NCBI GenBank assembly: GCA_965116925.1
Contig: OZ220744.1
Coordinates: 1,280,001 to 1,344,000 of the forward strand
Length of the DNA: 64,000 bases
DNA from: Candidatus Poribacteria bacterium
Lineage (GTDB): Bacteria > Poribacteria > WGA-4E > PCPOR2b
Direction of reading: 5' to 3'
The position numbers and the translations under genes were made by a program. The notes under the pieces were generated by a model, which saw only the letters and a program-made list of their open reading frames with translations, searched no databases and was not told where the DNA came from. This document shows, piece after piece, positions 1,563 to 61,437 of the stretch (within the stretch, counting starts at the first letter, position 1; each line of letters opens with the position of its first letter).

Positions 1563-1793
1563 ATAACGCAAGTTGCTAGTTGATAAACCAAGCACTATAA
1601 ACCGAGTTTTTTCTTCAAAACTCGGTTTCTTTCTGATTCTAACCACTTGGGTTATGTTATAGAATCCTAGTAGGAGTGTAAATGTTGTCAATCGTGGCGC
1701 AGATTGCCTAATCTGCGATCTTTCGCATTACGTATTACGCTTCGTTTCACGATTTAGACAAACACCAGAACAACAACTAGCAACTTAGGTTAT
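1563..1793. mobile_element. MITE-like shell family C with nested hairpins
   Basis: ATAACGCAAGTTGCTAGTTG and CAACTAGCAACTTAGGTTAT are 18/20 inverted; second copy at ~15043-15201. Confidence 0.7.
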
Positions 1794-1846
1794 AATAGGT
1801 CGAGTTTTCATACCTAACATCTATCGCCCCTCCCTGATCCCCTCTT

Positions 1847-1940
1847 GCAAGCTAACAGTTTGCGTTACATTTGTCAGACTGCCCGGTGATTACAACCTTT
1901 GCCGACTCAGCAACACCAAAATGCCAGCACGTCCTAGTTA
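1847..1940. repeat. Dispersed repeat family D (REP hairpin plus IS-like end)
   Basis: Similar to 12775-12865 (GCAAxCTAACAGTTTGCG..GGTGATTACA..CAAAATGxCAxCACGxCCTA). Confidence 0.65.
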
Positions 1941-2080
1941 AGCACAAATCTCCATTCCCCAATCATCCCTATATTTCCGCTTTGCACAACTGCACCATGT
2001 CGGTTATAATAATCACTAGACAGAGGGCAAAAATTTCCGTTTGAGTTTCTGAGAGAACCCCCGACAGAAAGGACAAAGGG

Positions 2081-3157
2081 ATGAAAATCACAAAAATCGA
2101 GACAATTCAAATCGAAACACCACGTTATACCGGTCAGATATCGGGACATGTCATTGTCAAAGTGCATGTAGACGACGGACCAATAGGTCTTGGAGAAGCC
2201 TCGGATAGCAGAGCCGACGATCTCGGCGCGATAACCCGACGCTACAACGAGCTATTGGTGGGACGTGACGCCACCCGTATCACGGAGATTAACGAGTTCC
2301 TACGAACACAGGACTTCGGCAGCACTGTTACCAATCTACACCTCGCCTCCGCCATCGACTTGGCACTCTACGACCTCAACGGCAAGGTACAGGGAGTGCC
2401 CCTCTACCAAATGCTGGGCGGCAAAATGCGTGATAGCGTCTACTGTTGTTATCCAACCTGGGGCGTACAGGTGCGCGAGGACTTTGAGAGGACCGCAGGC
2501 TACCTGCAACGGTTGGTGGATTTGGGTCATCATCTCTTTCGTTACTACGTGTCGGGCGACAGCACATTGGATAACGACTTCTTGACGGAGATGAAGGCGA
2601 GATTTGGCGATCAGATTCGTCTCAAGCAACTCGATTTCTCCGGTCGCTTCAACGACTGGGAGACCGCTCTACGCTACGCCGATGTGCTTCGGCATCACGC
2701 ACCGTTCCACTTTGAGCAGCCCTCGCGCGACCTACGGGTATGCGCGGAATTTACCAAACGGATGGATTTGCCAGTAAGCCTTCACATCAACGATTTGGCA
2801 CTTGGCTACGAAGCAGCCGAGCGCGGTGCCTGCACGGTCTTCAATGTGGCGTGTGTGTCAGGAGGACCCACCCATATCCGCCGCCTGTTTGCCTTAGCAG
2901 AATCGGCGGGGCTCAGGTGTCTGATTGGTACAGATCAGGAATCGACGCTTGGTACATCCGCACAGGTCCAACTAGGCGTTTCGATGCCAAATCTCACCTT
3001 CCCCTGTGATCCGATGGGCCCCGTACTTTACACGGCATCACCGGCGAAGGAGCGCGTCCGAGCGGAAGGCAGCCACCTCTATCCGCCCGAAGGACCGGGG
3101 CTTGGCGTTGAGTTAGATCCGGACAAACTGAGCGAATTGACCGTCGCATCGGCATAA
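2081..3157 (+). CDS. Mandelate racemase/muconate lactonizing (enolase superfamily) enzyme
   Basis: MKITKIET start, GLGE, SAIDLALYDLNGK..GVPLYQMLGG, EQP and PEGPGLGVELD motifs. Confidence 0.9.
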   Translation: MKITKIETIQIETPRYTGQISGHVIVKVHVDDGPIGLGEASDSRADDLGAITRRYNELLVGRDATRITEINEFLRTQDFGSTVTNLHLASAIDLALYDLNGKVQGVPLYQMLGGKMRDSVYCCYPTWGVQVREDFERTAGYLQRLVDLGHHLFRYYVSGDSTLDNDFLTEMKARFGDQIRLKQLDFSGRFNDWETALRYADVLRHHAPFHFEQPSRDLRVCAEFTKRMDLPVSLHINDLALGYEAAERGACTVFNVACVSGGPTHIRRLFALAESAGLRCLIGTDQESTLGTSAQVQLGVSMPNLTFPCDPMGPVLYTASPAKERVRAEGSHLYPPEGPGLGVELDPDKLSELTVASA

Positions 3158-3182
3158 GGCGAGCAGCGAGGAGGATATCCCA

Positions 3183-4280: not shown

Positions 4281-4295
4281 CATGAAGGTTTAAAT

Positions 4296-5690: not shown

Positions 5691-5714
5691 GGGGGTGGAG
5701 CTCCAACCTGAAAT

Positions 5715-7893: not shown

Positions 7894-7934
7894 ATAATTA
7901 TCCATATCCCTCATATACAGAGGTGTAACCATCT

Positions 7935-10943: not shown

Positions 10944-11130
10944 GACGTGATGCGTGAAATGAAGTTGTTGTATCTGTCCCTTTGATATTACCTTTACGAC
11001 TTACGCAGCTAGCTCATAAGTCCCTCTGATTTTTCCAAGTCTCCCTGACAAGGGGGATTTAGGGGGTTAAAAAATCGAGTGCCTTGGGTAGATTATCTCC
11101 TTAACCTGTGGGAGGATTGTGCCGTAAGAA

Positions 11131-13921: not shown

Positions 13922-14126
13922 TATAGTGAATTAGAGAAATAAGTAGACATTTACCAATAACTTCAACCTACTCGAAATTGTCAAAGTCCCCCTGAACCCC
14001 TCTGATAAGAGGGGAAAGACAAGGGAGAAGATCCTCTCTTATCTTCTCCCCTTGTCAGGGGAGTTGGGGGATTTAGGGGGTTAGCTGTACGTTGGGAGTG
14101 TCTAAATAATGCTAAAATCTACTATA
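13922..14126. mobile_element. MITE shell family A (TATAGT...ACTATA), CCCCCT/AGGGGG cargo
   Basis: Ends shared with copies at 17908, 22269, 44878, 47395, 47539 and 56024. Confidence 0.75.
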
Positions 14127-14986: not shown

Positions 14987-15289
14987 GAAGCAATTTTTGT
15001 ATTCCTAATAGAACTTACACACATGGTCAGAAAATAGTTATCATCCTAAGTTGCTAGTTATTGGAAATCCATCTGTAGGTCGAGATTCACATCTCGACAC
15101 CCCACCGTCGATTTTGGAAAATCGACCTACAGAAATGATACAATTTGCACAGAGATTAGGGGCTATTGGTTTGAATATGCCGGCTACTAGCAACTTGCGT
15201 TGTAATACTCAACGGTTTGCCACAAGAGCTAATCAAGACAACCGACTCTTTAATCTTAACGATAGCTGAAAGGAGTTCTAAAGAGGATT

Positions 15290-16087: not shown

Positions 16088-17932
16088 ATGAACCAACAGA
16101 TTAGCGATAAACTCTCAAACCTACCTGCCGGTCCCGGTGTCTATCTGATGAAAGACGCAGCGGAAAAAGTGCTATACGTCGGCAAGGCAACCTCCTTGCG
16201 CCAGCGGGTCAGATCCTACTTCCAAAATGCTGCCACCCCACACGCCTTGACCAAACCAATGCTGCGCTATGTCGCCGATATCGACGCCATCCTTACTGCA
16301 AGCGATGTTGAGGCGTTAATCCTTGAAAATAACCTCATTAAGGAGTATCAGCCACGCTACAACATTAGACTCAAGGACGACAAACGCTATCCGTATCTAA
16401 AAGTGACCGTCAATGAACCGTTTCCGGGGCTTTACATTACGCGTCAAAAAGAGAATGATGGCGCAAAATATTTTGGTCCCTTTGTACATACCCGTGCGAC
16501 GCGGCAGACCATCAAGCAGCTGACAAAGGTCTTCCCTATCCGCACCTGTAATTTGGAATTGAAAGCATCAGGAAATCCACACCGTGTGTGCTTAGATTAT
16601 CACATTCAACGTTGTCCCGGTCCCTGTGCAGATCTCACCACCGTTGAGGATTACGATCAGATTGTGAAGAGTGTCCGCCGGTTTTTGAGCGGGGACACAG
16701 CGACGGTTCTAAAAGATCTGAAAGAAAAAATGCAGTCCGCTGCAACCGCACTCGATTTTGAAAGTGCCGCGAAATATCGAGACCAGATCGAGAATGTCAA
16801 GGACGCGATTGCCAAGCAGAACCTCGACAACGCGTCCGCAGAAAATGAGGACGTGATTGGTGTAGCGCGAGCGGGAGATGAAGCGTGTGCACAGGTGTTG
16901 ATGATACGCGATGGGAAGCTGATCGAACGCGAGCACTACTTCCTGAAGAATTCGTCTGACTCCATCATTGAGACGCTGACTGCATTTGTTCAGCAGTACT
17001 ATCAAGATGCCTCATTCATTCCGAAAACCATTTTGTTGCCTGACGACATCGAGATGCCGGGAGCCATCCAGCGTTGGCTATCCGAGAAGCGTGGTAGTCA
17101 GGTCACATTGTACATCCCACAGCGGGGGCGTAAACGTCAGTTAGTAGAGATGGCAGCGAAGAATGCGAGTATCATCCTTGAGCAGAAGGAACAGAACGTC
17201 GTCTTCAAAGCCGATGACAACCCCGCCCTGATTGAGTTACAAGAGTTGTTGAACCTACCTCACCCGCCAGCCCGTATTGAGGGGTTTGATATCTCCAATC
17301 TGGGAGATCGATTCCCTGTCGCCTCGATGGTGGTGATGGAAGATGCACAACCCGCGAAATCTGAGTATCGACGCTTTAAGATTCGTACCGTTGAAGGGCA
17401 GAATGACTATGCAATGATGCAGGAGGTCGTCACCCGTCGATTTCGTCGTGCTATTGACGAAAATCGTTTCCCAGATCTGATATTAATCGATGGAGGTAAG
17501 GGACAGTTAAGTGCCGCATACGAAATACTGCAAACACTGGATTTAAGCCATCTTCCAATTATTGGGCTTGCCAAGCGGTTCGAGCATATCTTTCTTCCCG
17601 GCAGATCTGATCCAATCGTGCTCCGGCGCGACAATCCGACACTTCACCTAATCCAGCGGTTGCGCGACGAAGCGCATAGATTCGCTATCACGTATCACCG
17701 AAAACGCCGCAGCCGCGCACTCAGTCACTCAATCCTTGATGAAATTCCGAATGTTGGTGTCAAGCGAAAACAGGCACTGCTTCAACATTTTGGGGCAATT
17801 GAAAAGATTCGTCAGGCCAGCCTTGATGAGCTGCTATCTGTGAAAGGGATACCGCACGGTGTTGCGGCAACTATTCACAAACACTTGAGGGAACAAGAAG
17901 GACAAACTATAGTGAATTCAAAAAATAAATGA
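16088..17932 (+). CDS. uvrC: Excinuclease ABC subunit C
   Basis: PGVYLMK..LYVGKA..LRQRVRSYF, DDKRYPY, RIEGFDIS, DGGKGQL, RDEAHRFA motifs and HhH tail. Confidence 0.97.
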   Translation: MNQQISDKLSNLPAGPGVYLMKDAAEKVLYVGKATSLRQRVRSYFQNAATPHALTKPMLRYVADIDAILTASDVEALILENNLIKEYQPRYNIRLKDDKRYPYLKVTVNEPFPGLYITRQKENDGAKYFGPFVHTRATRQTIKQLTKVFPIRTCNLELKASGNPHRVCLDYHIQRCPGPCADLTTVEDYDQIVKSVRRFLSGDTATVLKDLKEKMQSAATALDFESAAKYRDQIENVKDAIAKQNLDNASAENEDVIGVARAGDEACAQVLMIRDGKLIEREHYFLKNSSDSIIETLTAFVQQYYQDASFIPKTILLPDDIEMPGAIQRWLSEKRGSQVTLYIPQRGRKRQLVEMAAKNASIILEQKEQNVVFKADDNPALIELQELLNLPHPPARIEGFDISNLGDRFPVASMVVMEDAQPAKSEYRRFKIRTVEGQNDYAMMQEVVTRRFRRAIDENRFPDLILIDGGKGQLSAAYEILQTLDLSHLPIIGLAKRFEHIFLPGRSDPIVLRRDNPTLHLIQRLRDEAHRFAITYHRKRRSRALSHSILDEIPNVGVKRKQALLQHFGAIEKIRQASLDELLSVKGIPHGVAATIHKHLREQEGQTIVNSKNK

Positions 17933-18074
17933 ACACTTTCGCTCCTCGGTTTCGATCTCCCCGATAAATCCCCGATGCTCGGGGTAAACTTGTAAACTTA
18001 TTATCGGGACTTGGTAGGCGCTGTTTGTAACTGCGCCGATTTGGAGTGTCTCATTAATTCTAAAATCTACTATA
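17908..18074. mobile_element. MITE shell family A overlapping uvrC 3' end
   Basis: TATAGTGAATTCAAAAAATAAA...ATTAATTCTAAAATCTACTATA. Confidence 0.8.
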
Positions 18075-18352: not shown

Positions 18353-20962
18353 ATGAATGAAAGAAATCTAAAAATCCTCGGGATACTGGCAATTCTCGTC
18401 ATCGTCCTGGTGCTGCACATCAAACTGTTCCAATTTAATGAAATCGTCCAACACGGTAACCTGCAAACGCTAGTCTGCCTCGGACGGGTGACAAAGATAG
18501 ACACGAGTGAAGAGGTCGATCAGATTATAACCTTCCGCGTGATTTCCGGGAGATTTCGCGGCGAAACTGTTCAGGTCAATAACATCTGGACAGGACGCGC
18601 ATTCGGTGATCGGGTGATACGAAAAAAGGACGTGCTTTTCCTTGAGATGCCCCTCAGACGCCAAGCGAAAACGACCCTGAGCGAAATACGTGACAACGTA
18701 CGAATGCTTGAATATTTCCGAACACCTTTTCTGCTCTATCTTGCGGGGATGTTGGGCATCCTAATAATTATGGTCGCTGGTATGAAGGGTATACGTGCAA
18801 TTTTGACGTTGTTCGTCACTGCCTTTGGCATTTTATACATTCTAGTGCCCTTAATGCTTAAAGGCTTCAATCCGATTGCCGCTGCCCTGCTTGTTGCAGC
18901 TTTGCTGACTGTCTCAACCTTTGTGCTGATTGCCGGGTTCAGTTTTAAGGTGATTCCCGGCGTGCTAGGCACCCTCGGTGGATTGGTCGCCGTTGGCCTC
19001 CTATCAGTCATCAGCCAAAAGGCAATGCTCTTCACCGGATTGGCACAAGAATTCGGATTTCTTGAACTCGGTATTGCCCTTTGGCGGACACCAGCTTCAC
19101 ACGGTTGGGATTTCAAGGGAATCCTTGCAGCGGGGATGATTCTGGGAGCCGTTGGTGCCATGATGGATGTCGGTATGTCTATCTCCTCCTCTGTCTATGA
19201 AGTCAAACAGGTCAACCCAAACGTCACTGTACGGCAAGCTATCCGTGCCGGGCTTAACGTAGGTCGGGACATCATGGGGACAATGGCGGACACCCTCATT
19301 TTTGCCTATCTTGGCGCGTACATGATCACGATGCTACTCCCTCGTATTGAATTTCCCGAAGTCGGATACCTCTACCCATTCCTCCGTCTGGCGAATGATG
19401 AAACAACCGCCGTCGCTATCACACAAGCGATCGTCGGAACCATCGGGTTGGTTTTGACTGTTCCAATCGCTGCGGTCATCGCCGGTGTCCTTACCAAATA
19501 TCGAAAAATCGCCCCTTCCGAGATTGATGAAGACCTGCCTTCAGAGGAAGAACTTGAAGAGCTTTTCCGCACTGATGACCCAAAAAGCAAAGCGCGTTTG
19601 GCCGTGCCGATAGCATTAATCGTCGTGCTTGTAGGCACACAATACTTCTACCATCGAATCAACCGCGCTTCAGCGGTCATTGTCGAGCATCATGACGCAA
19701 ACGGTAATCTCACCTCTAGATCGGAATATGCCAAGGGCAAGGTGATTAGTCTCCTTGAATCCAACGCTCCCCTCCTGTTTAGTGTGGACGTAACGGAGAA
19801 AGATAGTTTGGAACGTCGGCAGATTTCCGACGACCTACGGCGAGCATTTGAGCGTCATAACGTGCCACTATCAGAAGACCTCACTGTGTCAATCAAGGAA
19901 TGGAGAGATACCAAATGGCTCATTAGGGATGAGAAGAACGAGGTCACGTTTTCTGTTGGCGAGACGGAGGGGAAACTCAACGTTTACGACGCGACAACAG
20001 AACATCACATCCTAAAAATCGAGATGCTGTCAGGACTCTACAAAGGACAAACAGTCATCCTGCGGAACATTCTCAACCATAAAGTCGATCTACTGAGTAT
20101 CCCCGCCGAACCCGGAGATGTGATCTTATGTCGTATGGGCGGAACGCCGGATCAGGTCAGTCTAGTCAATCTCGTTCAAGAGTATGGGCGAGATCAGTTT
20201 CTAATTTGGATGTTTGGGTTGATGTTGGTGGTGATTATCATCGTGGGACGAAACGAGGGGGTGCGTACCGCCTGTGCGATGATTGGTTCAGGCTTAATCC
20301 TTTACTTTTTCATGATCCCGTTGATCTCGCGTGGCGAAAACGCTGTGTTGATTGTCACCCTGAGCTCCGGCATGATTGCTTTTGTATCCCTTGTATTCGT
20401 TATTGGTCCCAGTCGAAAGACCTTTTCCGCTGTGCTTGGCACGATGGGAGGTATCCTTGTCGCTGGGCTGCTTGTCATGTTCGCCCAAAATTACCTCCGT
20501 TTTTCAGGCTTGGAGAATGCGGTCTCGGCGGACATCATAGAAGCCACCCGCACACCGCCTTTCGATTTCCGACAGGTGCTGCTCGCAGGGATGTTAATGG
20601 GAGTGCTCGGTGTGGCTGTTGATGGTGCGATTGAGGTCGCATCCTCAATGGAGGAGATTCGACGAGCAAATCCAAACATGCCGACGTGGAGATTAATCAC
20701 TTCCGGGATGAACGTCGGCACCGATATCCTTGGGACCATGGTTAATACATTGGTGTTCGCTTATCTGGGTGTGGAATTCCTGTTTATCATGGCAGTCGCG
20801 ACACCCAATCTTGATCTCTTCCAATCTCCTACAATAGAGCTTTTGAGCGTCGGCATTGCATCCTCCGAAATTGTGCGCTTACTCGCTGGCACACTCGGAC
20901 TCGTCCTCACCATCCCGATGACCGCCACAATTTCAGCCATCTGGAATCGGCGTAGAAACTAG
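18353..20962 (+). CDS. Membrane protein with two YibE/F domains
   Basis: AG..LGA..DV..SI.S...E and G.NVG.DI.GTM..TL.FAY.G motifs each occur twice. Confidence 0.85.
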   Translation: MNERNLKILGILAILVIVLVLHIKLFQFNEIVQHGNLQTLVCLGRVTKIDTSEEVDQIITFRVISGRFRGETVQVNNIWTGRAFGDRVIRKKDVLFLEMPLRRQAKTTLSEIRDNVRMLEYFRTPFLLYLAGMLGILIIMVAGMKGIRAILTLFVTAFGILYILVPLMLKGFNPIAAALLVAALLTVSTFVLIAGFSFKVIPGVLGTLGGLVAVGLLSVISQKAMLFTGLAQEFGFLELGIALWRTPASHGWDFKGILAAGMILGAVGAMMDVGMSISSSVYEVKQVNPNVTVRQAIRAGLNVGRDIMGTMADTLIFAYLGAYMITMLLPRIEFPEVGYLYPFLRLANDETTAVAITQAIVGTIGLVLTVPIAAVIAGVLTKYRKIAPSEIDEDLPSEEELEELFRTDDPKSKARLAVPIALIVVLVGTQYFYHRINRASAVIVEHHDANGNLTSRSEYAKGKVISLLESNAPLLFSVDVTEKDSLERRQISDDLRRAFERHNVPLSEDLTVSIKEWRDTKWLIRDEKNEVTFSVGETEGKLNVYDATTEHHILKIEMLSGLYKGQTVILRNILNHKVDLLSIPAEPGDVILCRMGGTPDQVSLVNLVQEYGRDQFLIWMFGLMLVVIIIVGRNEGVRTACAMIGSGLILYFFMIPLISRGENAVLIVTLSSGMIAFVSLVFVIGPSRKTFSAVLGTMGGILVAGLLVMFAQNYLRFSGLENAVSADIIEATRTPPFDFRQVLLAGMLMGVLGVAVDGAIEVASSMEEIRRANPNMPTWRLITSGMNVGTDILGTMVNTLVFAYLGVEFLFIMAVATPNLDLFQSPTIELLSVGIASSEIVRLLAGTLGLVLTIPMTATISAIWNRRRN

Positions 20963-21077
20963 TGCTCTGTCAGGCAAATTATGCTTGTCTATATGGATTG
21001 AGACTCATAATACTTCGTAGGGGTCGGGTCACCCGACCCCCTTGTTGATATGCAAAACTTATATGACTGAGTACTAG
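20959..21077. mobile_element. MITE shell with CTAG flanks and GTAG-REP cargo
   Basis: CTAG-TGCTCTGTCA...TGACTGAGTA-CTAG; internal GTAGGGGTCGGGTCACCCGACCCC. Confidence 0.6.
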
Positions 21078-22268: not shown

Positions 22269-22372
22269 TATAGTGAATTCAAAAAACAAATGGACACTTC
22301 CCCCAGACCCGGTAGGTGCGGTTTTCAACCGCACCGGTTTGGTGTGTCTCATTAATTCTAAGATCTACTATA
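22269..22372. mobile_element. MITE shell family A, GGTAGGTGCGG..CCGCACC cargo
   Basis: Family A ends; lies between the promoter and the start codon. Confidence 0.8.
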
Positions 22373-24401: not shown

Positions 24402-24671
24402 CAGGACTAACGCCTTTCATCTTATAGTTGTCCGGTTCATCAGGTGTTTCGGCGCATGGTCAAAATCCACAGCCATCGTAGGCGGGGCATCATGGGTTTT
24501 AAGAAATTAAACGGGTAATTTTATATTTCCCTAGACCCGGTAGGTGCGGTTTCCAACCGCACCGGACATCGCTCGGAAATTACCCAATTAATAAATTAAT
24601 CTTCATCTTGCCCTGCATTGGCACGGAAGCATTGAAATATAAAACCTCAGCATTCAACTGCGTAGGTCCTA
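24402..24671. mobile_element. MITE shell family E with nested elements
   Basis: CAGGACTAACGC...GCGTAGGTCCTA; flanks ATTAT/ATTGT (4/5). Confidence 0.65.
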
Positions 24672-26742: not shown

Positions 26743-26833
26743 GGCTTATGTTAAGAAATAGTGCAAAGAAACCGAGTTTTTTCTTGAAAACTCGGTTTCT
26801 CTTTGCATTTTGCACTTTCTTTTGATATGAACC
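26743..26833. mobile_element. MITE shell family B (GGCTCAT ends, 8-bp TSD)
   Basis: Flanks AACGTATT/AACGTACT; GAAACCGAG..CTCGGTTTC hairpin; lies between convergent genes. Confidence 0.8.
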
Positions 26834-31200: not shown

Positions 31201-31295
31201 CGCGCGGCAGTTGGAAAACGGGAGTGCTTGTTTTCCCGCTGTCTCGTTTTCTCGTTGGTCAGGTACTTATAACATCTGAATTGTCGTAAACACAT
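28233..31295 (-). CDS. gspD: Type II secretion secretin with six Secretin_N repeats
   Basis: N0 domain, repeated 'I..L.YA.A' N domains, QVWIDIQILEV and KLPILGDLPFIG..IITPHII. Confidence 0.9.
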   Translation of the reverse strand: MCLRQFRCYKYLTNEKTRQRENKHSRFPTAARALIFVMLSISIGCIAGFFTASVLAQEADQRGMEVAERDEAGQAIRFNFDFPSGNLQSLIKFISAETNLTIIASENEIKDKKFALTNLKNVTIDETLEEIKTVLAQYDLTMIRTNNTLLITTFEKAVRMKVPVKRITADPSLIEQTDEIQTYMIQLNSAVASELVNSLKPLLSKAANIFADGNSNSLIITDVASNIHRIATILQVTDEAPEAPLKVEIIPLQNATAASLAQTLNNVFQQEGEVANLLRKMGSTSKPEEMQEMMERVREEGGGIDMIRGRIQISADESSNSLVVKASEANLVVLRDLIRQLDTAPSIQTEIRIFRLNYAIAQDVAQVLEELITGVSAGRRPGSNSEWWERREWQRSRQNLMRRRAEGDQDYQSIVGAVNISSSDRLNAVLVSSDPRNFPIIEKIIAQLDQADPQEEIRIYFLQFAESQSLSDNLRDLFEGGDSGRDDDMPWWWRRRNEDRGGSEGGFGVQGEVHLVPDTRLNALLVSTASQNFETIDSLINRLDVNMPDQEWGTRIYKLRYADAENVANIINNVYQGSNNRSGGFFFFVPGRARNQNQGSLAGNVTAEAYPTLNAIIISTATQRNFTLITQFVEELDTPTPEEQREVTKLIRLEYANAEDTEDLLEDVWGEESGDDRGGFNFGRFLARGGTLEQNDINSLRGQVQVEADNQTNSVLVTTAQRYMEQVEAMIRELDFVRGQVWIDIQILEVTLDESTKLGVELTARERGLFGAEVRNRNPLVGEFGAELGLNQEISGFNISLATKEYMALLHTLIRENKVQTISTPALLTRDNREATWSSGRRVPFLQSADVTSLADNLTQPLFNYDFIDPPVGVTITLTPHIAKSQTADTKKRTIGLDIDQITLSNFVEFTDFNAPITEDSSISAFIDVEDGQQIVVGGMIKEKRQQIESKLPILGDLPFIGSIFKKTETVAENSEVVIIITPHIIDIQNPEDYGRLERQSEEWRLNGQNPEDDKQPSEK

Positions 31296-31445
31296 TGTCA
31301 AAACCTTCCTTTAAACATTTGGAGAAAATAGAACGCTAGAACACAGAGAAACAAAGAAAAAAACTCGCCCCTTTGGGTTTCATCACGTCTCACGAGCACA
31401 TCACGAAAGGCAGAAACCTTCTCACATTTTACGTTTCACGTTTCA

Positions 31446-32897
31446 TTATAGCACCCTAGCGATCATTGAGAGATTTGCACTGATGGTCGTTTCCTTTTTG
31501 TCCGCTATAGTGATTTGCAGATCTCTGACCTGCAACCATTTCGAGCTTGATTCAATTGCGTAAATGAGTCGAACCACGCGCTCAATCCTGTTACTAAAGC
31601 GCATATCAACGATGTAAGTCTCAGGCTGATGGGTAGAGGGAACAGAGGCAAGCCAACTGTGCAGTTGATCTTCTCGTTCCAAAATCTGATCAACGTATTG
31701 GGTGAGCGCACGGAGTTGCCGGTCGTAATCCAACGTCCTTTCAGTATCTTCTGCATAATATTTCTCATAGCGATTAATTAATGTCTCGAATTTCGACAGT
31801 AGGACACTGTTAGGCTTGAACTTAATAGCCGTTGTCTGCTTTCTGGCACCGATGCCCAAAAATCCACCACTCGCTTCGTCGGTTTCTGCAGCGATTTGAG
31901 CCGCAAGAAATCCCCCCCTAAATTCAACTGTACCAGCCAGTTGTTGTTCCAGGTTTGATTGGATGAACTGTAGCAATTCGATTCGCAGCGTTAAAGGGAT
32001 TACCTCTGGTAGCGATATGAATTGCCGATTAGCTGCTCGATCCAGCGATTGCGGCGTTGATGGCTTATCCTTCGTTAGTGTGGAATCGACTTCCGAATCA
32101 GGCTCTTCAACTGTATCATCATCGACTGCCCGCTCTTCGGATTCGATTTCTGTTACGCCTTCCTGACCCTCATCTTCTGTATCATCTTTCCCCCACCAAG
32201 CATCGAACATGGCTTCCATCGTCGCTTCTTCAGTTTCGATTTGTCGCTGCTCCTCTTTTTCCTCTATGGCACTTTGTTGTGATTCTAACTGTTGGAGCTC
32301 GTTCGCTAGCTCGCCTAAATAAAGATGGTACACTAGATTTTTCTTCGCTTGCAATGGGAGATTCTCAGATTTTGCACCCGGCATTGGCCTAATATTGAGT
32401 TGATAATTGGGGCGCAACCCTGCTTTGCGCGCAAGATCGGAGATTCGTCTTGAAATTACCGCTTGAGCCTGCTCCCCCTCGAAGATAGGCCCTCGTATCT
32501 CCTTTAGCTTGGCTAAACTTTCAAATTCGCCGTAATGCTTCTTATAGGCGAGCAGGGAATCTGCTTTATTTTCAAGGGCAGGGTGCAGTACCGCCAGGGC
32601 GGCTGCGCGGTTTGCTCGGTTGAGGGCTTTCAAATCAACCCGATTTACAATCTCTTTAAACAGAGAATCAGAGATAATCTGACCTTCTAAACCGACCTGC
32701 GCTTGAATCTCCCGGTCAATTTGCTGCGTGACTTGAGCAAGTTGGACCAAGTTCTGTGCTGTTTCCAATTTCTCTTGTTTAGCAGCGAGTTCATCGCCCG
32801 GAAACCATTGCCGAATTATCGGCTCGATAAGAAGAATCAAGAGCACAAGACCAACGACAGCAAGTAAAACGATTTCACGCCGTGTAAGTTTTCTCAT
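31446..32897 (-). CDS. GspM/PilO-like inner-membrane protein with large insertions
   Basis: MRKLTRRE plus TM start; C-terminal 'LIYAIESS..LQVRDLQI' ferredoxin-like fold; position in operon. Confidence 0.65.
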   Translation of the reverse strand: MRKLTRREIVLLAVVGLVLLILLIEPIIRQWFPGDELAAKQEKLETAQNLVQLAQVTQQIDREIQAQVGLEGQIISDSLFKEIVNRVDLKALNRANRAAALAVLHPALENKADSLLAYKKHYGEFESLAKLKEIRGPIFEGEQAQAVISRRISDLARKAGLRPNYQLNIRPMPGAKSENLPLQAKKNLVYHLYLGELANELQQLESQQSAIEEKEEQRQIETEEATMEAMFDAWWGKDDTEDEGQEGVTEIESEERAVDDDTVEEPDSEVDSTLTKDKPSTPQSLDRAANRQFISLPEVIPLTLRIELLQFIQSNLEQQLAGTVEFRGGFLAAQIAAETDEASGGFLGIGARKQTTAIKFKPNSVLLSKFETLINRYEKYYAEDTERTLDYDRQLRALTQYVDQILEREDQLHSWLASVPSTHQPETYIVDMRFSNRIERVVRLIYAIESSSKWLQVRDLQITIADKKETTISANLSMIARVL

Positions 32898-34695: not shown

Positions 34696-36243
34696 CTAAT
34701 TCTGTCTCCAATACTTGGTCACAATCTGTTCCCCAGTGCGATCAAGGGCACCAACACAAGAGGCAACCGTTTTGCCGAGATTGTCAACCCCTTCAGTTTC
34801 AATCAGAAAACCGTGTGACCGATAGGTAACCAACTCTGCGATCTGACGGAAAGTCCCCATATCAATCCCCTCAACCTCAAGCAGCTGATTGATGCGCTCA
34901 AAAGGATTTCCCTCAACCCCAGCTGCTTCCAATGCTTCAGCCCGCTCACTGTCTTCAGGTTGTGATTCGCGACGACTAATAATTGCACCCGCTTTGTCCA
35001 CGTCCATGCCCGGCAAAAGTTGTAATATCTCCTGCGGTGCCGTGTTGATGTTAATGAACCCGTTGACTATTGCGTCATCCTTTGTGGTAATTCGATCGAC
35101 TATGCTACCAAACTCATCCTCCGTTATCAGCTTTACCTCTTTGAGTTGATCAACATTTTGGAAGTTACCTTGACTGTTACGGTGGTCGACAATCCGTTCA
35201 GCGATACCCTCATCAATACCATCTAACGTCTGCAACTCTCCAGCATCGGCGGTGTTGATATTGACGATATCCTCCTCTTCGTCATTGCTTTCTATACTGA
35301 TCCGCTCGCGGATATTGTTAAAAACCTGCTCCGTGACCGCCGTTGCATCAATCAGATCGCCGATACTATCGAACTCACGCTGTTGAACCAATGCGTCCTT
35401 TTCCCCTTGGGAGAAAACGGGCTGATTGTTGTTCCCTCGGATCTGGGTCAGCTGCTGTCCGTCCGCGTTGTTAATGTTGACACGTGCATTGCCATTTGCA
35501 TCCGTATTTTTGTCGATCGAATAGACTGTCACCAGATCGACCAATCCGGGAACGTTTTGCTGCGTCCCTGTCGCGTCCATTCCTATATTACTACCTGTGC
35601 CCTCGACTGCATTTGGGGCTGCAGCAACCTGTTGCCCATAGAGCAGTGCCGATGTCATACCTTCGACTCGCGCTAAGTCCCGCACAGTGCGGTAGGGTCT
35701 TCCCTGCTCAATCACTTCAGCAAGTGATTGTTCCGTTGCTCCAACCTCTTGATAGCCCATCAGGGTCAATAGCCCTTGAATCATACTCACATCTGCCGTA
35801 TTGATGTTAATCTTGGCACCTTCATCGGTGATTTTAACGCGATAGATGAGGGGACGTGCAGCTTCAATACCCTCTCCTATCTGTTCTTCTAACCCCTCCG
35901 CCCAATTTTCTCCAAGTGAATCGTAAGGGGTTTCATCCCCACGAAGCATCACAACTGCTCGCTCAAACCCCGCCTTTGCGGCATAGTGGAACTTGGTTCG
36001 ATCCGCGAAATTTGCCTGCGCTCGCTGCTCTAGACGAATCGAATACAGAAAGTGCGTTGCAAGGACCGAAAGAACTGTCAGCAACCAGAGTGTCGAGATA
36101 AGAGAAAGTCCACACTCGCAGCGGACCAAAAAACGGGCAAATTGACTTTCCCGTTTTCTGGTTTTCTGGTTTTCTCGTTTTCGGGATGGCTCTGTACCTT
36201 TTGCGTCTTTGCGGTAAAAATCCGATTTATCCGCGATCGACAT
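34696..36243 (-). CDS. gspK: GspK minor pseudopilin with extra HhH repeats
   Basis: G|LSLISTLWLL, DSLGENW and DEGAKININ motifs; four NIN(T/N)A repeats. Confidence 0.85.
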   Translation of the reverse strand: MSIADKSDFYRKDAKGTEPSRKRENQKTRKRESQFARFLVRCECGLSLISTLWLLTVLSVLATHFLYSIRLEQRAQANFADRTKFHYAAKAGFERAVVMLRGDETPYDSLGENWAEGLEEQIGEGIEAARPLIYRVKITDEGAKININTADVSMIQGLLTLMGYQEVGATEQSLAEVIEQGRPYRTVRDLARVEGMTSALLYGQQVAAAPNAVEGTGSNIGMDATGTQQNVPGLVDLVTVYSIDKNTDANGNARVNINNADGQQLTQIRGNNNQPVFSQGEKDALVQQREFDSIGDLIDATAVTEQVFNNIRERISIESNDEEEDIVNINTADAGELQTLDGIDEGIAERIVDHRNSQGNFQNVDQLKEVKLITEDEFGSIVDRITTKDDAIVNGFININTAPQEILQLLPGMDVDKAGAIISRRESQPEDSERAEALEAAGVEGNPFERINQLLEVEGIDMGTFRQIAELVTYRSHGFLIETEGVDNLGKTVASCVGALDRTGEQIVTKYWRQN

Positions 36244-36261: not shown

Positions 36262-36371
36262 GGCTCATATAAAAAGAAAGTGCAAAATACCGAAAGAAAT
36301 CGTAGGCGGGGCATCTTGCCCCGCCCGTGCCAAAAACTTAATTTCTATTGCACGCTTTCTTAACATGAGCT
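36262..36371. mobile_element. MITE shell family B with GTAG-REP cargo
   Basis: Perfect 8-bp TSD TCCTTTCT (36254-36261, 36372-36379). Confidence 0.85.
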
Positions 36372-37292: not shown

Positions 37293-37852
37293 CCGCCACC
37301 CCCTTGTCCCTGTTGACCGCCCTGCGTCTGCTGCTGCGGCATCTGACGGTCTGCGAGATAGGTACTCGTTGAAATTAACCTTTCTTTGCCGCGCTCTTGC
37401 CACGTGACGGTAATGGTTACTAAGCGCAGCCCTTCAATCTCATCCGATTCCACATCTTGGACATCCGAATGCCAACGGAATCGTGAATCCTCTCCAAATT
37501 CACCCTCCTCTTCGCCTATATCCGGATACCCTTCAGATTCAATTGCCGCCATCCGAAATTTAAGGAGATACAGCGCGGTTGTTCTGTTTTCTGCCAATGC
37601 TTGCCCCTTTGCCGCTTCCGTAAAGGAACGCAGCAACGCCGGCAGAGCTAATGACAAAATGGCTAGCGTGACGACAATTTCGATTAGGGTAAAGCCGTTT
37701 TTGTCGTCTGCTGATCGGCGGAAAAATGAGAGGTTCTTGTTAAGAAAGCGTCCGACAGAAACCGTAGGGGCGGGGTTCCCCCGCCCGTGTTTCGCATCTT
37801 GCGCTTCCTTTTTATATGAGCCAAATGAGATTAGGTTATTCAGGGGGTTCAT
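37289..37852 (-). CDS. gspI: Minor pseudopilin GspI
   Basis: NG|FTLIEIVV, FRW and VTITVTW motifs. Confidence 0.82.
   Translation of the reverse strand: MNPLNNLISFGSYKKEAQDAKHGRGNPAPTVSVGRFLNKNLSFFRRSADDKNGFTLIEIVVTLAILSLALPALLRSFTEAAKGQALAENRTTALYLLKFRMAAIESEGYPDIGEEEGEFGEDSRFRWHSDVQDVESDEIEGLRLVTITVTWQERGKERLISTSTYLADRQMPQQQTQGGQQGQGGGG
37732..37822. mobile_element. MITE shell family B inside the gspI coding sequence
   Basis: Perfect 8-bp TSD AAATGAGA (37724-37731, 37823-37830). Confidence 0.88.
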
Positions 37853-44877: not shown

Positions 44878-45234
44878 TATAGTGATAGGAGTTACGCACT
44901 TCAGTTTGTAGTAGCGCAATTCATTGCGCGTTCTTCCCTCCCCTTGCTTGCGGGGGATAGAGGGGGGACGGGCGATGAATCACCGAACTACAAGGCTTTG
45001 ACCATTCAGCTGCGTAAGTCCTAAGTGAATTCAAAAAATAAATAGACATTGTTTGGTAGGCGCTGTTTCCAACTGCGCCGATTTGGAGTGTCTCACACTT
45101 TCGCTCCTCATCTGGTAGGCGCTGTTTCCAACTGCGCCGATTTGGAGTGTCTCACACTTTCGCTCCTCATCTGGTAGGCGCTGTTTCCAACTGCGCCGAT
45201 TTGGAGTGTCTCGTTAATTCTAAAATCTACTATA
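44878..45234. mobile_element. Family A MITE with internal 59-bp tandem amplification and nested family E element (44886-45023)
   Basis: AGTGA duplicated at 44881-44885 and 45024-45028; repeat units start at 45055, 45114 and 45173. Confidence 0.85.
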
Positions 45235-46375: not shown

Positions 46376-46974
46376 TAATCGAGGAGAAGCTGGACAAGAA
46401 CATCATCGTTACCTCTATTGATGCTGTTGCCAATTGGGCGCGCGCATCCTCTTTATGGCCCATGACCTTTGGGCTCGCTTGCTGTGCCATTGAGTTCATG
46501 GCAACCGCTGCCTCAAATTATGATTTAGACCGCTTTGGTGCGGGAGTGCCACGCGCAACACCCCGTCAATCCGATCTGATCATTGTTTCGGGGACAGTCA
46601 CGCTAAAAATGGCGACCCGGATTAAACGGCTCTATGAACAGATGCCCGAACCGAAATATGTCATCTCTATGGGAAGTTGTGCCACGAGCGGTGGTCCCTA
46701 CTGGCAGCACGGTTATCACGTCCTTAAGGGCGTAGACCGAATTATTCCCGTTGATGTCTACGTTCCCGGTTGTCCGCCACGTCCAGAGGCTGTGCTTGAA
46801 GGCTTGATGAAGTTGCAGGAAAAAATTAAAACGCAGACGGTTGCAAAACGAACAAGTGTGCCTTTCCTGAAGAAACTCTTCACCAAGACAGACTTGGACA
46901 ATAATGCAGAGGCGATGGCTGAAGCCCAAGCAGCACAGGCAGAACACGAAGAAGAGGAAGAAGCCGCCGGTTAA
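46372..46974 (+). CDS. nuoB: NADH-quinone oxidoreductase subunit B
   Basis: FGLACCAIE and PGCPPRPE motifs. Confidence 0.97.
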
Positions 46975-47394
46975 ATGTAGAAGGCTCATGTTAAGAAATC
47001 GTGCAATAGAAACCGATTCATGGTGACTTCTGCAAAACATACGCCAGAATTTAGACCTGTCAGTGCCCTGCCAAATCCCTGCCATTCGGCTTGGTTATGG
47101 TGCCATTTGAGTGAAAAACGGTTCATAAATACCGCGTATTTGGCAGGTCAAAAAGCCGTCTGGGCGCACCTTCTGTTGCGTGGTACAAATTTACAAACGC
47201 CCTGAAGCTAGGCCCCATCGGGGTTCAAAGAGACATCCGCCAAAGATGAACCCCCGATATGAGGTTGAATTTTTTTTGGACCTGCCAGTGCCCTGCCAAA
47301 TTGCCGAATCGTGTCGGTGGCGCATTGAAACGAAGGTGTAGGTTCCGTGTAGCGGCAGGGGTTGGATTTTACCGTTCAACTGCGTAAGTCCTAT

Positions 47395-47646
47395 TATAGT
47401 AAACACGAGAAATAAGGATACATTTACTAATAATTTCAACCGGCGCGCAATCTTCAAAGTCCCCCTGATAAGGGGGATTTAGGGGATTGGTTGTGTGTCG
47501 AGAGTGTCTCATTAATTCTAAAATCTACTATAGTTGATTATAGTGAATTCAAAAAATAAAGAAACACTTGCGCCCCCCATGTTTGGTAGGCGCTGTTTTC
47601 AACTGCGCCGATTTGGAATGTCTCATTAATTCTAAAATCTACTATA
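47395..47646. mobile_element. Two tandem family A MITEs (47395-47532, 47539-47646) with different cargo
   Basis: Both end ..TAAAATCTACTATA and are each followed by GTTGATTA. Confidence 0.8.
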
Positions 47647-49440: not shown

Positions 49441-49532
49441 GGCTCATGTAAAAACGGAGTGTAAAGCGCGAAGAGAAACCGAGTTTTTTCTTGAAAACTC
49501 GGTTTCTGTTGCACTATTTCTTAGCATGAGCC
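49441..49532. mobile_element. MITE shell family B
   Basis: Flanks TCGATGTT/CCGATGTT (7/8). Confidence 0.8.
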
Positions 49533-51626: not shown

Positions 51627-51719
51627 CGCTCATATAAAAAGTAAAGTGCAAAACACTAAGAGAAACCGAGTTTTTTCGGCAAAACTCGGTTTCTGTTGCA
51701 CCATTTCTTGACATGAGCC
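51627..51719. mobile_element. MITE shell family B
   Basis: CGCTCATAT...CATGAGCC with GAAACCGAG hairpin; TSD degenerate. Confidence 0.75.
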
Positions 51720-52565: not shown

Positions 52566-52571
52566 ACCGTT

Positions 52572-52636
52572 TAGGATTACGTACTTCGGTTTGTAGTAGC
52601 GCAGTTTATTGCGCATCATAAACGGCGCAAATCCTA
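52572..52636. mobile_element. Short family E element
   Basis: TAGGATTACG..GCAAATCCTA; flanks CCGTT/TCGTT; same cargo as 44886. Confidence 0.6.
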
Positions 52637-52887
52637 TCGTTATTGTTTTCTTGATCGAATAGTACGTAGGTTGGGTTGAACGGAACTAATTAAAAATACC
52701 AACCATCACAACTGAATTTCGGAGTCCAATTCTGCTGGAAATTGCTCTAATCTAGTGAAACCCAACATTAAACTAATGGCTCCATGAGCAAATGGTTTTC
52801 ACGTTTCACGCATCACGTTTCACGTTCGGTCTCTGAGGAATGGGCGTATCAATGGTTGCAAACTACTAGTTGTCAGGAGATAACAAA

Positions 52888-55539: not shown

Positions 55540-55605
55540 TAGCACTTACGGAGTCAACTGTAGGCGGGGTATCTGGTTTCCCCGCGCTGAAACGCGTAAG
55601 TCCTA
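55540..55605. mobile_element. Family E element at the nuoL stop
   Basis: Perfect 5-bp TSD TCTAG (55535-55539, 55606-55610). Confidence 0.8.
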
Positions 55606-55642
55606 TCTAGGGTGTCTTCTATTCAAAAGTGAGGTGAAAATC

Positions 55643-55951
55643 ATGGCATTTCCACTTCCGCCGATTGATGATCCGGCGTTACAAAAATTCTGCAAAACGC
55701 ATAATCTGTATGAGGCGGTCGCTGCCGGTTGCCATTACGCACACAAGTTCTTTCCAGCAGCGGAAACGATTGAGATTGATTTCCACCCACCTCATCGGGA
55801 CGATGAGCCAGAGGAGGCAGACATTGCATTCGTGATTAAGTCAAATATGACAGTCAACGAAACGCTTGAGGCTCAAGATCGATTCATCAAAGCCATGAGG
55901 GATGTGCCGGGGGCTTTCTATATCATCCCTCTGCATAGGTTCATCGGATGA
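55643..55951 (+). CDS. Small hypothetical protein, possible antitoxin
   Basis: GAGGTG RBS; stop overlaps the next ATG (ATGA). Confidence 0.6.
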   Translation: MAFPLPPIDDPALQKFCKTHNLYEAVAAGCHYAHKFFPAAETIEIDFHPPHRDDEPEEADIAFVIKSNMTVNETLEAQDRFIKAMRDVPGAFYIIPLHRFIG

Positions 55952-56028
55952 ATCATCTTGATTTCCTAGATACAGCAGCCGCTTTTGATCGACTTGATAA
56001 AACAACCCTTTCCGAAGGGATCTTATAG
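55948..56028 (+). pseudogene. Truncated gene remnant, HEPN-protein-like N-terminus
   Basis: MNHLDFLDTA..SEG ends at a TAG supplied by the family A MITE. Confidence 0.4.
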
Positions 56029-56131
56029 TGAATTCAAAAAATAAATGAACACTTTCGCTCCCCATGTTTGGTAGGCGCTGTTTGTAACTGCGCCGATTTG
56101 GAGTGTTTCATTAATTCTAAAATCTACTATA
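56024..56131. mobile_element. MITE shell family A
   Basis: Near-identical to 47539-47646. Confidence 0.82.
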
Positions 56132-56262
56132 AACTATCTTCAAAGAACAAATCAGATCTGACGTAAAAAATGAATAATTTGGCGCATCACGCCATAAATA
56201 GTAGGAGTAGGTTTCAAATCTGCACTACCTATGGACGCTTTTAACGAGGAGGATTTCACTGG

Positions 56263-57747: not shown

Positions 57748-57759
57748 AGGGAGAGTTCA

Positions 57760-59217: not shown

Positions 59218-59256
59218 GAGGAATTATTTCCTACGTTTTTACCCAAATATCAAACG

Positions 59257-59289
59257 AAAAAGGGCAACCACAAGAGGTTGCCCTTTTTT
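59257..59289. terminator. Intrinsic (bidirectional) terminator of nuo operon
   Basis: AAAAAGGGCAACC-ACAAGA-GGTTGCCCTTTTTT. Confidence 0.85.
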
Positions 59290-59533
59290 GTTCAAGCCGT
59301 ACTTTTTCCACTTGGCTCTACGGTTGTCTACCACGAATTATTTGAATCATCTTCCCAAGCCATCATGATGTGCAGCGAGCCACAATCAAGATAACTTAAG
59401 AAATTTCTGGTTGATACACCATGCTTTTTTTGATAAACTGTTGGAAATGAAGGGCAGACTTTCGTACCTTGTTCTTTATTGGATATGTACTACAATTTTG
59501 TCTGTCACAGATTCCTTTCTTTGAGGAGAAAAC

Positions 59534-60490
59534 ATGAAAGTAAAACTCGGTTTTATTGGAACAGGCGGCATGGCGGGGGCTCACATGAGAAACCTGCAAA
59601 CCTTCGATGATATAGAATTTACCGCTATGTGCGATGTTTCGGAAGAACGTGCACAGAGGTCAGCGGAGGAGTATGGGGGCAACGTCTACACAGACTTCCG
59701 CGAGATGTACCACAAAGAAGACCTCGACGCCGTTTATATCTGTACCCCACCCTTTGCACACGGCGAACAGGAACGAATCGCATGTGAACAAGGCATTCCA
59801 ATGTTCATTGAGAAGCCGATCGCTGCGGACCTAGAACAGGCAGTCATCATCAATGAGGATGTCCGCCGAAGCGGTGTTATCACCAGTGTTGGATACCACT
59901 GGCGCTATGGCGGCAATGCCCAACATGCGAAGTCATTGCTCGAAAACGAATCACCAGTTCTCGGCGCGTTGGGATACTGGATGGGCGGATTGCCCGGTAC
60001 GCTCTGGTGGAGAATCCGCGCCCAATCCGGCGGGCAGCATGTCGAACAAACAACGCATATCTTCGATCTGGCGCGTTTTCTGTTGGGTGACGCCAAGGCG
60101 GTGCACGGCGTTGCCACCCGTGGAAGTATGACAGACGTGCCCCAGTACGATGTCGATGACCTTAGCATGGTCAACATTGAGTTCGAGAGCGGTGCGATCG
60201 CCAATATCGCATCGTGCTGTGCGATGGAGGGTTGGAATCGAGTACAACTTGAAGTCTTCTGTCGCGGCCTGGTGGTAACTGTTGGCGGACCTAACACCGT
60301 TAATAGGAAAGGTGAAGAGGAATCACTGCCCGAAGACGGTGGTCAAGATCGAGACCGGGTGTTTATCGATGCGGTAAAGACCGGCGATTCATCGAAGATC
60401 CTTTCACCCTACAGCGATGCGTTGAAGACCCTCAGGATTATGATGGCAGCGAGCACTTCGTTTGAAACGGGCAAAGCGGTAGATCTATAA
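59534..60490 (+). CDS. Gfo/Idh/MocA oxidoreductase
   Basis: GFIGTGG, ICTPP, EKP and EQTTHIFD motifs. Confidence 0.92.
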   Translation: MKVKLGFIGTGGMAGAHMRNLQTFDDIEFTAMCDVSEERAQRSAEEYGGNVYTDFREMYHKEDLDAVYICTPPFAHGEQERIACEQGIPMFIEKPIAADLEQAVIINEDVRRSGVITSVGYHWRYGGNAQHAKSLLENESPVLGALGYWMGGLPGTLWWRIRAQSGGQHVEQTTHIFDLARFLLGDAKAVHGVATRGSMTDVPQYDVDDLSMVNIEFESGAIANIASCCAMEGWNRVQLEVFCRGLVVTVGGPNTVNRKGEEESLPEDGGQDRDRVFIDAVKTGDSSKILSPYSDALKTLRIMMAASTSFETGKAVDL

Positions 60491-60577
60491 AAAGGTGCTT
60501 GTTAGGTACAAGATCTGTTTTCAAATCGCCCTCAGATCTGTTCTTGACTGTAGTCGGAAACATAAAAGGAGAAAAGA

Positions 60578-61345
60578 ATGGGTTCAATTAATCAATCAAT
60601 CTGTTACGGCTGTTTCACGCGGGACGATGCCTCTCCGGAACAGGTCATCCGAGAAGCAGCGAAAATCGGTTATAAATCCGTAGAAATGGCACCGCCAGAA
60701 TATTGGTCCCTCGTCCGCGAAAATGGGATGCGCGTTGCGATTATTGTTGGACATCAGTCCCTACCTGATGGCCTCAACAAGCGTGAAAATCACGACCGCA
60801 TTGAGGGGGAGATTCTGGAAAATCTCGAAGTTGCTGCCGCAAATGACATCCCCGGCCTCATCTGTTTTTCAGGCAACCGAGAAGGGAAATCAGAGGAGGA
60901 GGGGCGGGATAATACCATCGAAGGACTTTTGCGCGTTGCCAAGGCAGCCGAGGATAAAGGTGTCAACCTTTGCGTAGAACTACTCAACAGCAAAGTAAAT
61001 CACCCCGACTATCAGTGCGATCGGACACCTTGGGGCGTGGAGGTTTGCAAAGGCGTCAATTCGCCGTATGTCCAGCTGCTTTACGACATTTACCACATGC
61101 AGATTATGGAAGGGGACCTTGTCCGAACGATTCAGGAGAGTATTGATTACATCGGGCATTTCCACACCGCGGGCAATCCGGGACGCAAAGACCTCGACGA
61201 TGAACAGGAAATCTACTATCCGCCTGTTATGCGCGCTATCGCTGAGACGGACTATGATCTTTACGTCGGACACGAATTTGTGCCGAAAGGCGATCCACTT
61301 GCTGCAATGCAAGCCGCCTTTGATACCTGCAACGTTACCGTTTAG
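60578..61345 (+). CDS. Hydroxypyruvate isomerase family TIM-barrel
   Basis: ELLN, YDIYHMQIMEG, HFHTAGNPGR and GHEF motifs. Confidence 0.92.
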   Translation: MGSINQSICYGCFTRDDASPEQVIREAAKIGYKSVEMAPPEYWSLVRENGMRVAIIVGHQSLPDGLNKRENHDRIEGEILENLEVAAANDIPGLICFSGNREGKSEEEGRDNTIEGLLRVAKAAEDKGVNLCVELLNSKVNHPDYQCDRTPWGVEVCKGVNSPYVQLLYDIYHMQIMEGDLVRTIQESIDYIGHFHTAGNPGRKDLDDEQEIYYPPVMRAIAETDYDLYVGHEFVPKGDPLAAMQAAFDTCNVTV

Positions 61346-61355
61346 CAAATCAATT

Positions 61356-61437
61356 CGCTTATGTTAAGATTTAGTGCAAAGGAACCGAGCTTTTTCTTCA
61401 AAACTCGGTTCCTTTGCACTTTCTTTTGACATGAGCC
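61356..61437. mobile_element. MITE shell family B between convergent genes
   Basis: CGCTTATGTTAAG...CATGAGCC with GAACCGAG hairpin. Confidence 0.78.

Follow-up and report, generated by a model that had tools for sequence, protein, structure and literature searches.

Miniature inverted-repeat transposable elements, or MITEs, derived from insertion sequences (IS) are known in bacteria from Correia/NEMIS, RUP, ERIC and Nezha (PMC3184786, PMC3733652), and short GTAG-tagged hairpins, the repetitive extragenic palindromes (REPs), are known together with REPINs and with the REPtrons of REP-associated tyrosine transposases (RAYTs, or TnpA-REP; PMC3733652, PMC8266576, PMC3116915, PMC3337134). Insertion sequences that target REPs are a further known group (IS1397, IS621, ISPpu9/10, ISPa11 and ISRm19/22; PMC1525189, PMC3184786). 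The nearest printed case found to the one reported here is that of Pseudomonas, where REP units are joined to stem-loops unrelated to them and form long inverted repeats (PMC3733652), which is not a MITE with target duplications, and in a 2024 MITE review (PMC10969869) the terms searched for occur only among the abbreviations and in the reference list. In a 64,000-nucleotide stretch of a Candidatus Poribacteria genome (the window; G000:C1:1280001-1344000, G000 being the source genome, a single contig of 6.47 Mb), and throughout that genome, we find the ends of IS elements of five DDE transposase families, without IS interior (shells), enclosing hairpins that are mostly REPs (cargo), in about 30 amplified shell-cargo combinations.

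We consider it probable that these are IS-end MITEs built around RAYT-type REPs, moved whole, likely by DDE transposases acting in trans, and that their cores were likely founded and occasionally replaced by a separate process that leaves no target duplication. Like other bacterial MITEs they are 70-300 bp long, non-coding and intergenic, with 15-30-bp terminal inverted repeats (TIRs), target duplications (TA for shells A, D and G) and matching transposases; unlike them, they hold in their interior a REP of another mobile system rather than an IS remnant, and a single genome holds eight kinds of shell, drawn from five or more DDE families, that all follow one build. As in described REP/RAYT systems, GTAG stands 0-3 nt before a short stem, several families each lie beside their own RAYT, free copies occur near gene ends and changes arise without target duplication; what differs is that 931 of the 2,120 catalogued hairpin instances sit within DDE-type shells and are spread by them. 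MITEs, REP/RAYT systems and REP-targeting IS are thus known separately. The present analysis adds cognate transposases for nearly all shells, a measure of shell-cargo linkage, the in-place swaps at orthologous sites and the cross-phylum spread. Our search, outside which most subscription papers and all supplements lay, found no paper on MITEs built around REPs, so a prior description is possible. The organism is likely a sponge symbiont, and the 64-kb stretch was also found in sponge metagenome runs.

Shells were counted with hand-made end patterns allowing 0-3 mismatches, which miss decayed copies, a pair being two inward-facing ends no more than 700 bp apart. By this measure the source genome contains 900 paired shells of eight types (A 302, B 192, C 50, D 50, E 144, F 98, G 33 and H 31), spanning 40-700 bp and, as expected of MITEs, short, non-coding, bounded by TIRs and present in many copies. 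They occupy 2.0% of the genome and about 13% of its crudely delimited non-coding DNA. A hairpin from one of 18 catalogued families lies inside 725 of the 900; the remaining 175 comprise 46 with another shell nested inside, 91 whose stem of at least 7 bp is decayed or outside the catalogue and 38 without a stem by rule, most of these last being, by eye, decayed REPs or short tandem repeats, with about two C copies that resemble IS-interior remnants. Exact long target duplications flank 100 of 192 B, 74 of 144 E, 26 of 50 C and 15 of 31 H shells, against 0-1 in shuffled-flank controls, and are present in every common cargo class of these four types. In A, D and G the TA belongs to the end pattern and is not assessable by shuffled flanks, and therefore their duplications rest on empty sites. 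A 108-bp A element has matches in 23 of 31 genomes searched and in 16 of 18 within the genus.

Seven of the eight shells share their ends with full IS elements from five DDE families (IS630 three times, IS1595, IS982, IS701 and ISAs1). The source genome itself carries the partners of A (two IS630 elements of about 910 bp, in 3 and 4 copies), C (a 943-bp IS982, 7 copies), F (an IS630 encoding 391 aa, both copies of which are lodged in REP loops inside F MITEs) and H (ISAs1, 3 copies). The ends of D are those of 1,256-bp IS630 elements (L161, L163) in the related genomes G007, G008 and G017, those of B belong to IS1595 elements in G017 and G006, and those of E to a 1,045-bp IS701 element (L201) in G015 (NF049921, 395 bits against a cut-off of 250). 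ISAs1 was also considered as the partner of E and was rejected, as the ends differ and its duplication is about 10 bp. A profile search with PF13359 found no partner for E or G, and one with PF13546 at E 1e-20 gave zero matches, controls included, and is hence uninformative. Identity between MITE and IS drops to background beyond about 17-33 nt, and therefore no IS interior is retained in the shells. An earlier reading of the window from its letters, the first-pass annotation, had taken the TIR-bearing, target-duplicating shells to be DDE-type and had proposed a search for autonomous IS with matching TIRs; both ideas are borne out, and the matching ends and duplication lengths suggest that the MITEs are likely mobilised in trans by the corresponding transposases.

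Shell A, with its TA duplication (empty sites keep one TA) and IS630-like ends, is like Correia/NEMIS of Neisseria in its TA-target, IS630-like end type. This is a likeness of function rather than of membership; the Correia end sequence presumably resembles the A ends, as the first-pass annotation had it.

The cargo belongs mostly to a second mobile system. We counted 1,713 GTAG hairpins in the source genome, and of 4,000 GTAG sites sampled 5.3% are followed by a hairpin, compared with 0.4-0.8% for seven control tetramers; four further families, P1-P4, have no GTAG tag. Many B, E and C cores contain REP doublets, which may be REPINs, and most A, D and F cores singlets. Five Y1 transposase hits are present in the source genome, of which L002, L003 and L005 pass the NCBIfam RAYT cut-off and L004 falls slightly under it, while the fragment L001 scores as IS200-like and its gene is interrupted at a TA by an A shell carrying an R1b REP. 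RAYT-model hits occur in all 20 genus genomes and exceed the cut-off in 15. At 37 RAYT loci, R1, R3/R4, R5, R6, R8, R9/R12 and P1 each flank their own RAYT gene, R10 and P3/P4 flank weaker Y1 hits, and intact RAYTs with HUH and catalytic tyrosine motifs sit amid the cargo REP families. Most cargo hairpins are thus REPs that flank RAYT genes in the genus, in line with the first-pass view of the GTAG hairpins as RAYT-associated.

L004 (G000:5955053-5955448) is a RAYT-like gene lying between cas1 and cas2 and bracketed by the P1 hairpin, and a 30-nt repeat with about 108 copies in a k-mer census of the source genome is probably a CRISPR array near it. At window 52636-52770 a long loop separates GTAGGTTGGGTT arms of the R9 type.

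We compared the window with syntenic regions of five relatives (G001, G005, G007, G014 and G018), and most of its elements have an empty orthologous site with a single copy of the target. The elements are listed below, without strand except where one is given. The hairpin families are R1a (GTAGGTGCGG), R1b (GTAGGCGCTG), R3 (GTAGGGGTCGGG), R4 (GTAGGGGCGGGG), R5 (GTAGGCGGGG), R6 (a GTAGGTCGA REP pair), R8 (a GTAGTAGCGC REP pair), P1 (AAACCGAG) and P2 (CCCCCT..AGGGGG).

1566-1790: shell C MITE (IS982-type ends) with P1 hairpin at 1599; 7-bp duplication TATAATA; ends match IS982
10995-11075, forward strand: truncated shell E, left end only, with P2 CCCCCT hairpin at 11041; both ends present in G005 and G007, site empty in G001 and G014
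13922-14126: shell A MITE (IS630-type, TA) with expanded P2 core; empty with one TA in G005, G001, G014 and G018
15009-15202: lone decayed E end (15009), then decayed shell C (about 15043-15202) with R6 REP pair; orthologous site could not be anchored
17908-18074: shell A MITE with R1b REP and short CCCGAT..ATCGGG inserts; empty with one TA in G005
20959-21077: shell D MITE (CTAG-targeting IS630-type) with R3 REP; ends match L161 and L163; single CTAG in G005, G001 and G007
22269-22372: shell A MITE with R1a REP; empty in G005 and G018
24402-24671: shell E MITE (IS701-type), 5-bp duplication ATTAT/ATTGT, with R5 REP split by nested F; empty in G005, G018 and G007; ends match L201
24492-24606: shell F MITE (IS630-type, hairpin-tip target, 1-bp duplication) with R1a cargo
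26743-26833: shell B MITE (IS1595-type ends) with P1 hairpin; empty in G005 and G018
36262-36371: shell B MITE with R5 REP; one copy of the 8-bp target at the empty site in G005, G018 and G014
37732-37822: shell B MITE with R4 REP, left end decayed; empty in five of five relatives
44878-45234: shell A MITE with three tandem R1b units, left end split by nested E; empty with one TA in G005
44886-45023: shell E MITE with R8 REP pair and CCCC..GGGG hairpin
46983-47393: lone B end (46983), repeat of about 350 bp, E right end (47393); member of the 345-366-bp E class
47395-47532: shell A MITE with P2 hairpin
47539-47646: shell A MITE with R1b REP
49441-49532: shell B MITE with P1 hairpin; same insertion with another core in G005, empty in G018, G001, G007 and G014
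51627-51719: shell B MITE with P1 hairpin; common to G005 and nearly unchanged there
52572-52620, forward strand: lone decayed E end with R8 REP
55540-55605: shell E MITE with R5-type REP, 5-bp duplication TCTAG; empty in G005
56024-56131: shell A MITE with R1b REP, a recent polymorphic insertion; empty in G005 and G001, skipped by contigs of X2, X3 and X4
61356-61437: shell B MITE with P1 hairpin

All the ends and hairpins of the first-pass annotation are present, far above chance, with several refinements. Its list lacked at least three shells (F, G and H). Its E ends exist, but those at 15009 and 52572 are lone and decayed rather than paired, and the pairs at 24402 and 55540 each have one decayed end; its shell C at 1563 is real, with the extent corrected as listed; and its shell A at 44878 is real but split by the E at 44886-45023. 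The hairpin at 24533, rightly assigned to another shell, belongs to a sixth type, F, which lies within E and is seated in the loop of its GTAGGCGGGG hairpin. At 11037, the CCCCCT hairpin described as outside A is not free of a shell but follows the truncated E end at 10995. The E class of 345-366 bp, with a long conserved core, is found at window 47045-47393 and at G000:2118118, 2276816, 3171998, 4793631 and 5730094; it is abundant in relatives and is without an Rfam match (46950-47420 searched).

A bulk comparison was made with G005, over 1.67 Mb and a further piece of 0.38 Mb. In the larger, 92 of 796 outermost elements were mapped, 49 being empty, 34 of these with the exact expected junction by count, and 43 filled or mis-mapped; in the smaller, 12 of 20 mapped elements were empty. 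Most insertions are species-specific. Contigs of the runs X2, X3 and X4 skip 56024-56129 and leave a single TA, and as X2 is otherwise near-identical in sequence, this site is polymorphic within the species. The composites therefore inserted as whole units: target duplications and empty sites with one target copy bear out the suggestion that REPs hitch-hike in MITEs, and empty sites do exist in relatives.

These insertions also bear on whether the hairpins are retained for host use, as terminators or mRNA stabilisers, with shells that merely deliver them and are sifted by selection. Almost all shells still contain a hairpin or what is left of one, six elements of the window have a better fold than shuffled sequence (z -2.5 to -6.3), and shell-borne REPs show a mild sense bias (174:133), each as host use would have it. 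However, most insertions are confined to one species and one is polymorphic within it, one composite breaks a Y1 transposase gene, and the space between convergent genes shows no excess of shells (58 of 588), so we give host use only a slight probability. By crude gene calls, 58 of 231 free REPs lie between convergent genes, an enrichment over the background of 286 of 2,675, and free REPs are sense-biased (105:47), in contrast to shell-borne REPs, which are not enriched there (36 of 396) and whose orientation bias is weaker. The GC skew of the source genome gives no clean origin, so a leading/lagging-strand comparison is uninformative. No Rfam match and no tRNA was found in the window.

The first-pass annotation had called the system combinatorial and proposed testing genome-wide independence of shell and cargo. 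Its observation that one shell carries different hairpins and one hairpin occurs in different shells is correct: nine of the 18 families are found in at least two shells at three or more copies each, namely R1a (A, F), R3 and R4 (B, D, G), R5 (B, E, H), R6 (C, G), R8 (C, E, H), R10 (A, G), P1 (B, C) and P2 (A, E). There are also hybrid elements with one E end and one A end. Independence, however, is rejected. The 18 x 8 table of family by shell (860 entries) gives a chi-square of 3,215 with 119 degrees of freedom and a Cramer's V of 0.73, values which, the copies being relatives, measure linkage rather than independent events and are overstated, though the empty cells remain: 30 of 144 cells hold at least three copies against 71 expected. 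Each shell carries 2-6 of the 18 families, R1 is found only in A and F, and R8 is nearly confined to E and H. Cargo does not always co-segregate with its shell, but because the two are so strongly linked "combinatorial" is an overstatement. Free combination, with every hairpin open to every shell through active homing, could draw on the nine shared families and on E-shell cargo that differs widely across phyla (among the matches listed); it is largely refuted in the source genome by the linkage and by the confinement of R1 and R8, and we regard it as highly improbable.

Whether anything beyond founding and spread is needed is best judged where the same insertion has different cores in two species. 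Among 21 same-site pairs, 12 were usable in that their arms are closer than 95% of other copies; five of these have unchanged cores, three a different hairpin, one an F in the REP loop and two short inserts; in the last the loop differs and the stem carries a paired change. At window 49441, the 10-nt loop of P1 is replaced in G005 by a 35-nt CCCC..GGGG hairpin, with arms identical at 50 of 56 positions and none of 191 other B copies as close. At G000:1872481, R4 stands against R2 with the switch starting at GTAGGG, and both copies have the same broken end and the same uncommon variant of the arm (1 of 42). These two cores have clearly changed in place. A third, at G000:6459471 (P2 against R1, arms 52 of 56), is only probable, as 6 of 301 copies are as close. 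Other shared elements, judged by eye, split about evenly between unchanged and changed cores. Same-site differences at G000:769828, 1275856, 1847251, 334640, 6015060 and 6193757 were set aside as probable independent insertions, and G000:786285, 1244333, 337140 and 6083733, which mapped poorly in arm scoring, were left out of the counts.

Outside shells, changes without target duplication are also seen. Of the 1,350 recurrent GTAG hairpins, shells A-G contain 580, a further 366 lie close to a lone end and 404 are free. When 39 free REP loci were mapped in G005, several had a short stretch replaced without target duplication, and two proved to be H elements. In three of those that differ, G000:696689 (+12), 1575994 (+6) and 6087809 (+12), REPs of GTAGGGAAC type replace short stretches in apparently coding DNA, the length changing by a multiple of three bases. 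A second, target-duplication-free process therefore exists. In other species RAYTs cleave REP DNA in single-stranded form and join it again, the GTAG tag selecting the dinucleotides at which they act (PMC8266576), and for that reason a RAYT is the likely agent of the duplication-free changes and may also do the core swapping.

A single chemistry might nevertheless account for the composites: combinations founded once and spread by DDE transposition, with later core changes due to ordinary recombination, whether conversion between copies or template switching driven by the hairpins, and RAYTs idle after founding. The strong linkage of shell and cargo fits this account, as do the hybrids whose two ends are of types E and A, the A swap at 6459471, which is consistent with conversion between shared arms, and the loop flips and paired stem changes at the shared sites G000:337140 (one of the poorly mapped ones) and 5612478. 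Palindrome repair typically produces changes of these two kinds. Against it stand the shell-free REPs, which are polymorphic by replacement and placed unlike shell-borne ones, the intact RAYTs with HUH and tyrosine motifs among the same REPs, and the swap that starts at a GTAG tag. We think this account doubtful, if a real contender. The first-pass proposal that REPs home to MITE centres is weakly favoured by the two clear and one probable core replacements, which gene conversion or template switching would explain equally well.

A number of points weigh against IS-end MITEs with separately edited REP cores. No cognate IS was found anywhere for shell G, no IS1595 was found in the source genome, and among its end pairs spanning up to 3.5 kb none of type D or E encloses a full element. 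The R2, R7, R11 and P2 families lie beside no RAYT among the 37 loci, the hairpin brought in at 49441 has neither a GTAG tag nor a RAYT partner at those loci, and no core change is tied to a RAYT. The same-site pairs were picked by hand, and the arm score of G000:1872481 takes in flank, its end being broken. In at least five cases, by eye, one site was struck independently by different shells or in opposite orientation, so that a same-site core difference can be two insertions, as is likely at both 769828 and 1275856. The bulk empty-site comparison covered 2.05 of 6.8 Mb in one relative.

On the reading of IS-end MITEs around RAYT-type REPs, founding would be rare for each combination and would occur when REP-bearing DNA comes between two IS ends, either by a REP landing in an IS or MITE whose interior is then lost or by template-switch repair. 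Each founded combination would be amplified by its DDE enzyme, and cores might still be edited by RAYT-type single-strand cutting and joining, by conversion between copies with shared arms, by F insertion at hairpin tips and by tiny inserts. Formation bias, easier pairing of close ends or a lower host cost are candidate reasons why nearly every shell would keep a hairpin.

Shell F and its IS630 resemble the known REP-targeting IS in inserting into REP hairpins: 91 of 98 lie at a hairpin centre, and 76 of 98 have a 1-bp duplication in place of TA. They differ in that F both targets and carries REPs, producing Russian-doll stacks, and in the other shells the nesting is reversed, with the REP inside the element. 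The full F-type IS630 is nested three levels deep in its own MITEs at G000:1430426-1431666 and 4122147-4123527. Some intergenic sites have been struck independently in several species, and full IS elements and MITEs often insert in the AT-rich ends of other shells to form stacks (G000:1746008, 1884300, 2658298, 5709940, 5899568 and 3913348; window 44878).

To look beyond the genus, we searched for an E end followed by GTAGGG within 32 nt and obtained at least 119 stretches, 80 of them among the matches listed. Candidatus Poribacteria records contain E-shell composites as well, but 73 of the matches listed are from outside Poribacteria, mostly from cyanobacteria and also from Armatimonadota and Chloroflexota; 54 of these 73 have both ends, 30 of the 54 a short GTAG hairpin and 16 a 5-bp duplication in addition. 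As the pattern required GTAGGG, these counts show occurrence, not frequency, outside Poribacteria. One build in five unrelated DDE families and its presence in culturable cyanobacteria suggest a general process rather than the oddity of one genome. Tentatively, and with less conviction than doubt, we propose a two-enzyme relay across phyla in which RAYTs would write and rewrite REPs between IS ends, creating MITEs, and DDE transposases would need the hairpin for such short elements. If true, it would be a general route of MITE birth in REP-rich bacteria and would let REPs spread without a RAYT at each step; REP spread and the origin of bacterial MITEs are both open questions. The material for a direct test is at hand in IS ends and transposases, REPs and RAYTs, empty and filled sites and sites with changed cores.

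Tiny inserts of 18-70 nt, often CCCGAT-NN-ATCGGG with a short tail, lie within other repeats (window 17960-18010; G014 orthologue of window 9790; many of the shared sites); with 67 per Mb in the G005 piece against 18 per Mb in the source genome, their density there is about fourfold. Small hairpin inserts in host stems number 10 of 115 against 3 in the control in the source genome and 11 of 112 against 7 in the G005 piece, near background. By description alone, the 18-35-nt inserts, some hairpin-shaped, inside existing repeats at orthologous sites are like the small dispersed repeats (SDR) of cyanobacteria reportedly described by Elhai in 2008. Tandem repeats of 7-8 nt (CACGTTT and AATGAACC types) occur at gene ends (window 31230-31450, 36145-36190, 45333, 49542 and 52795) and inside some B shells. 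Apart from the MITEs, window 442-1536 holds a gene with tandem repeats of about 150 nt and many genomic paralogues.

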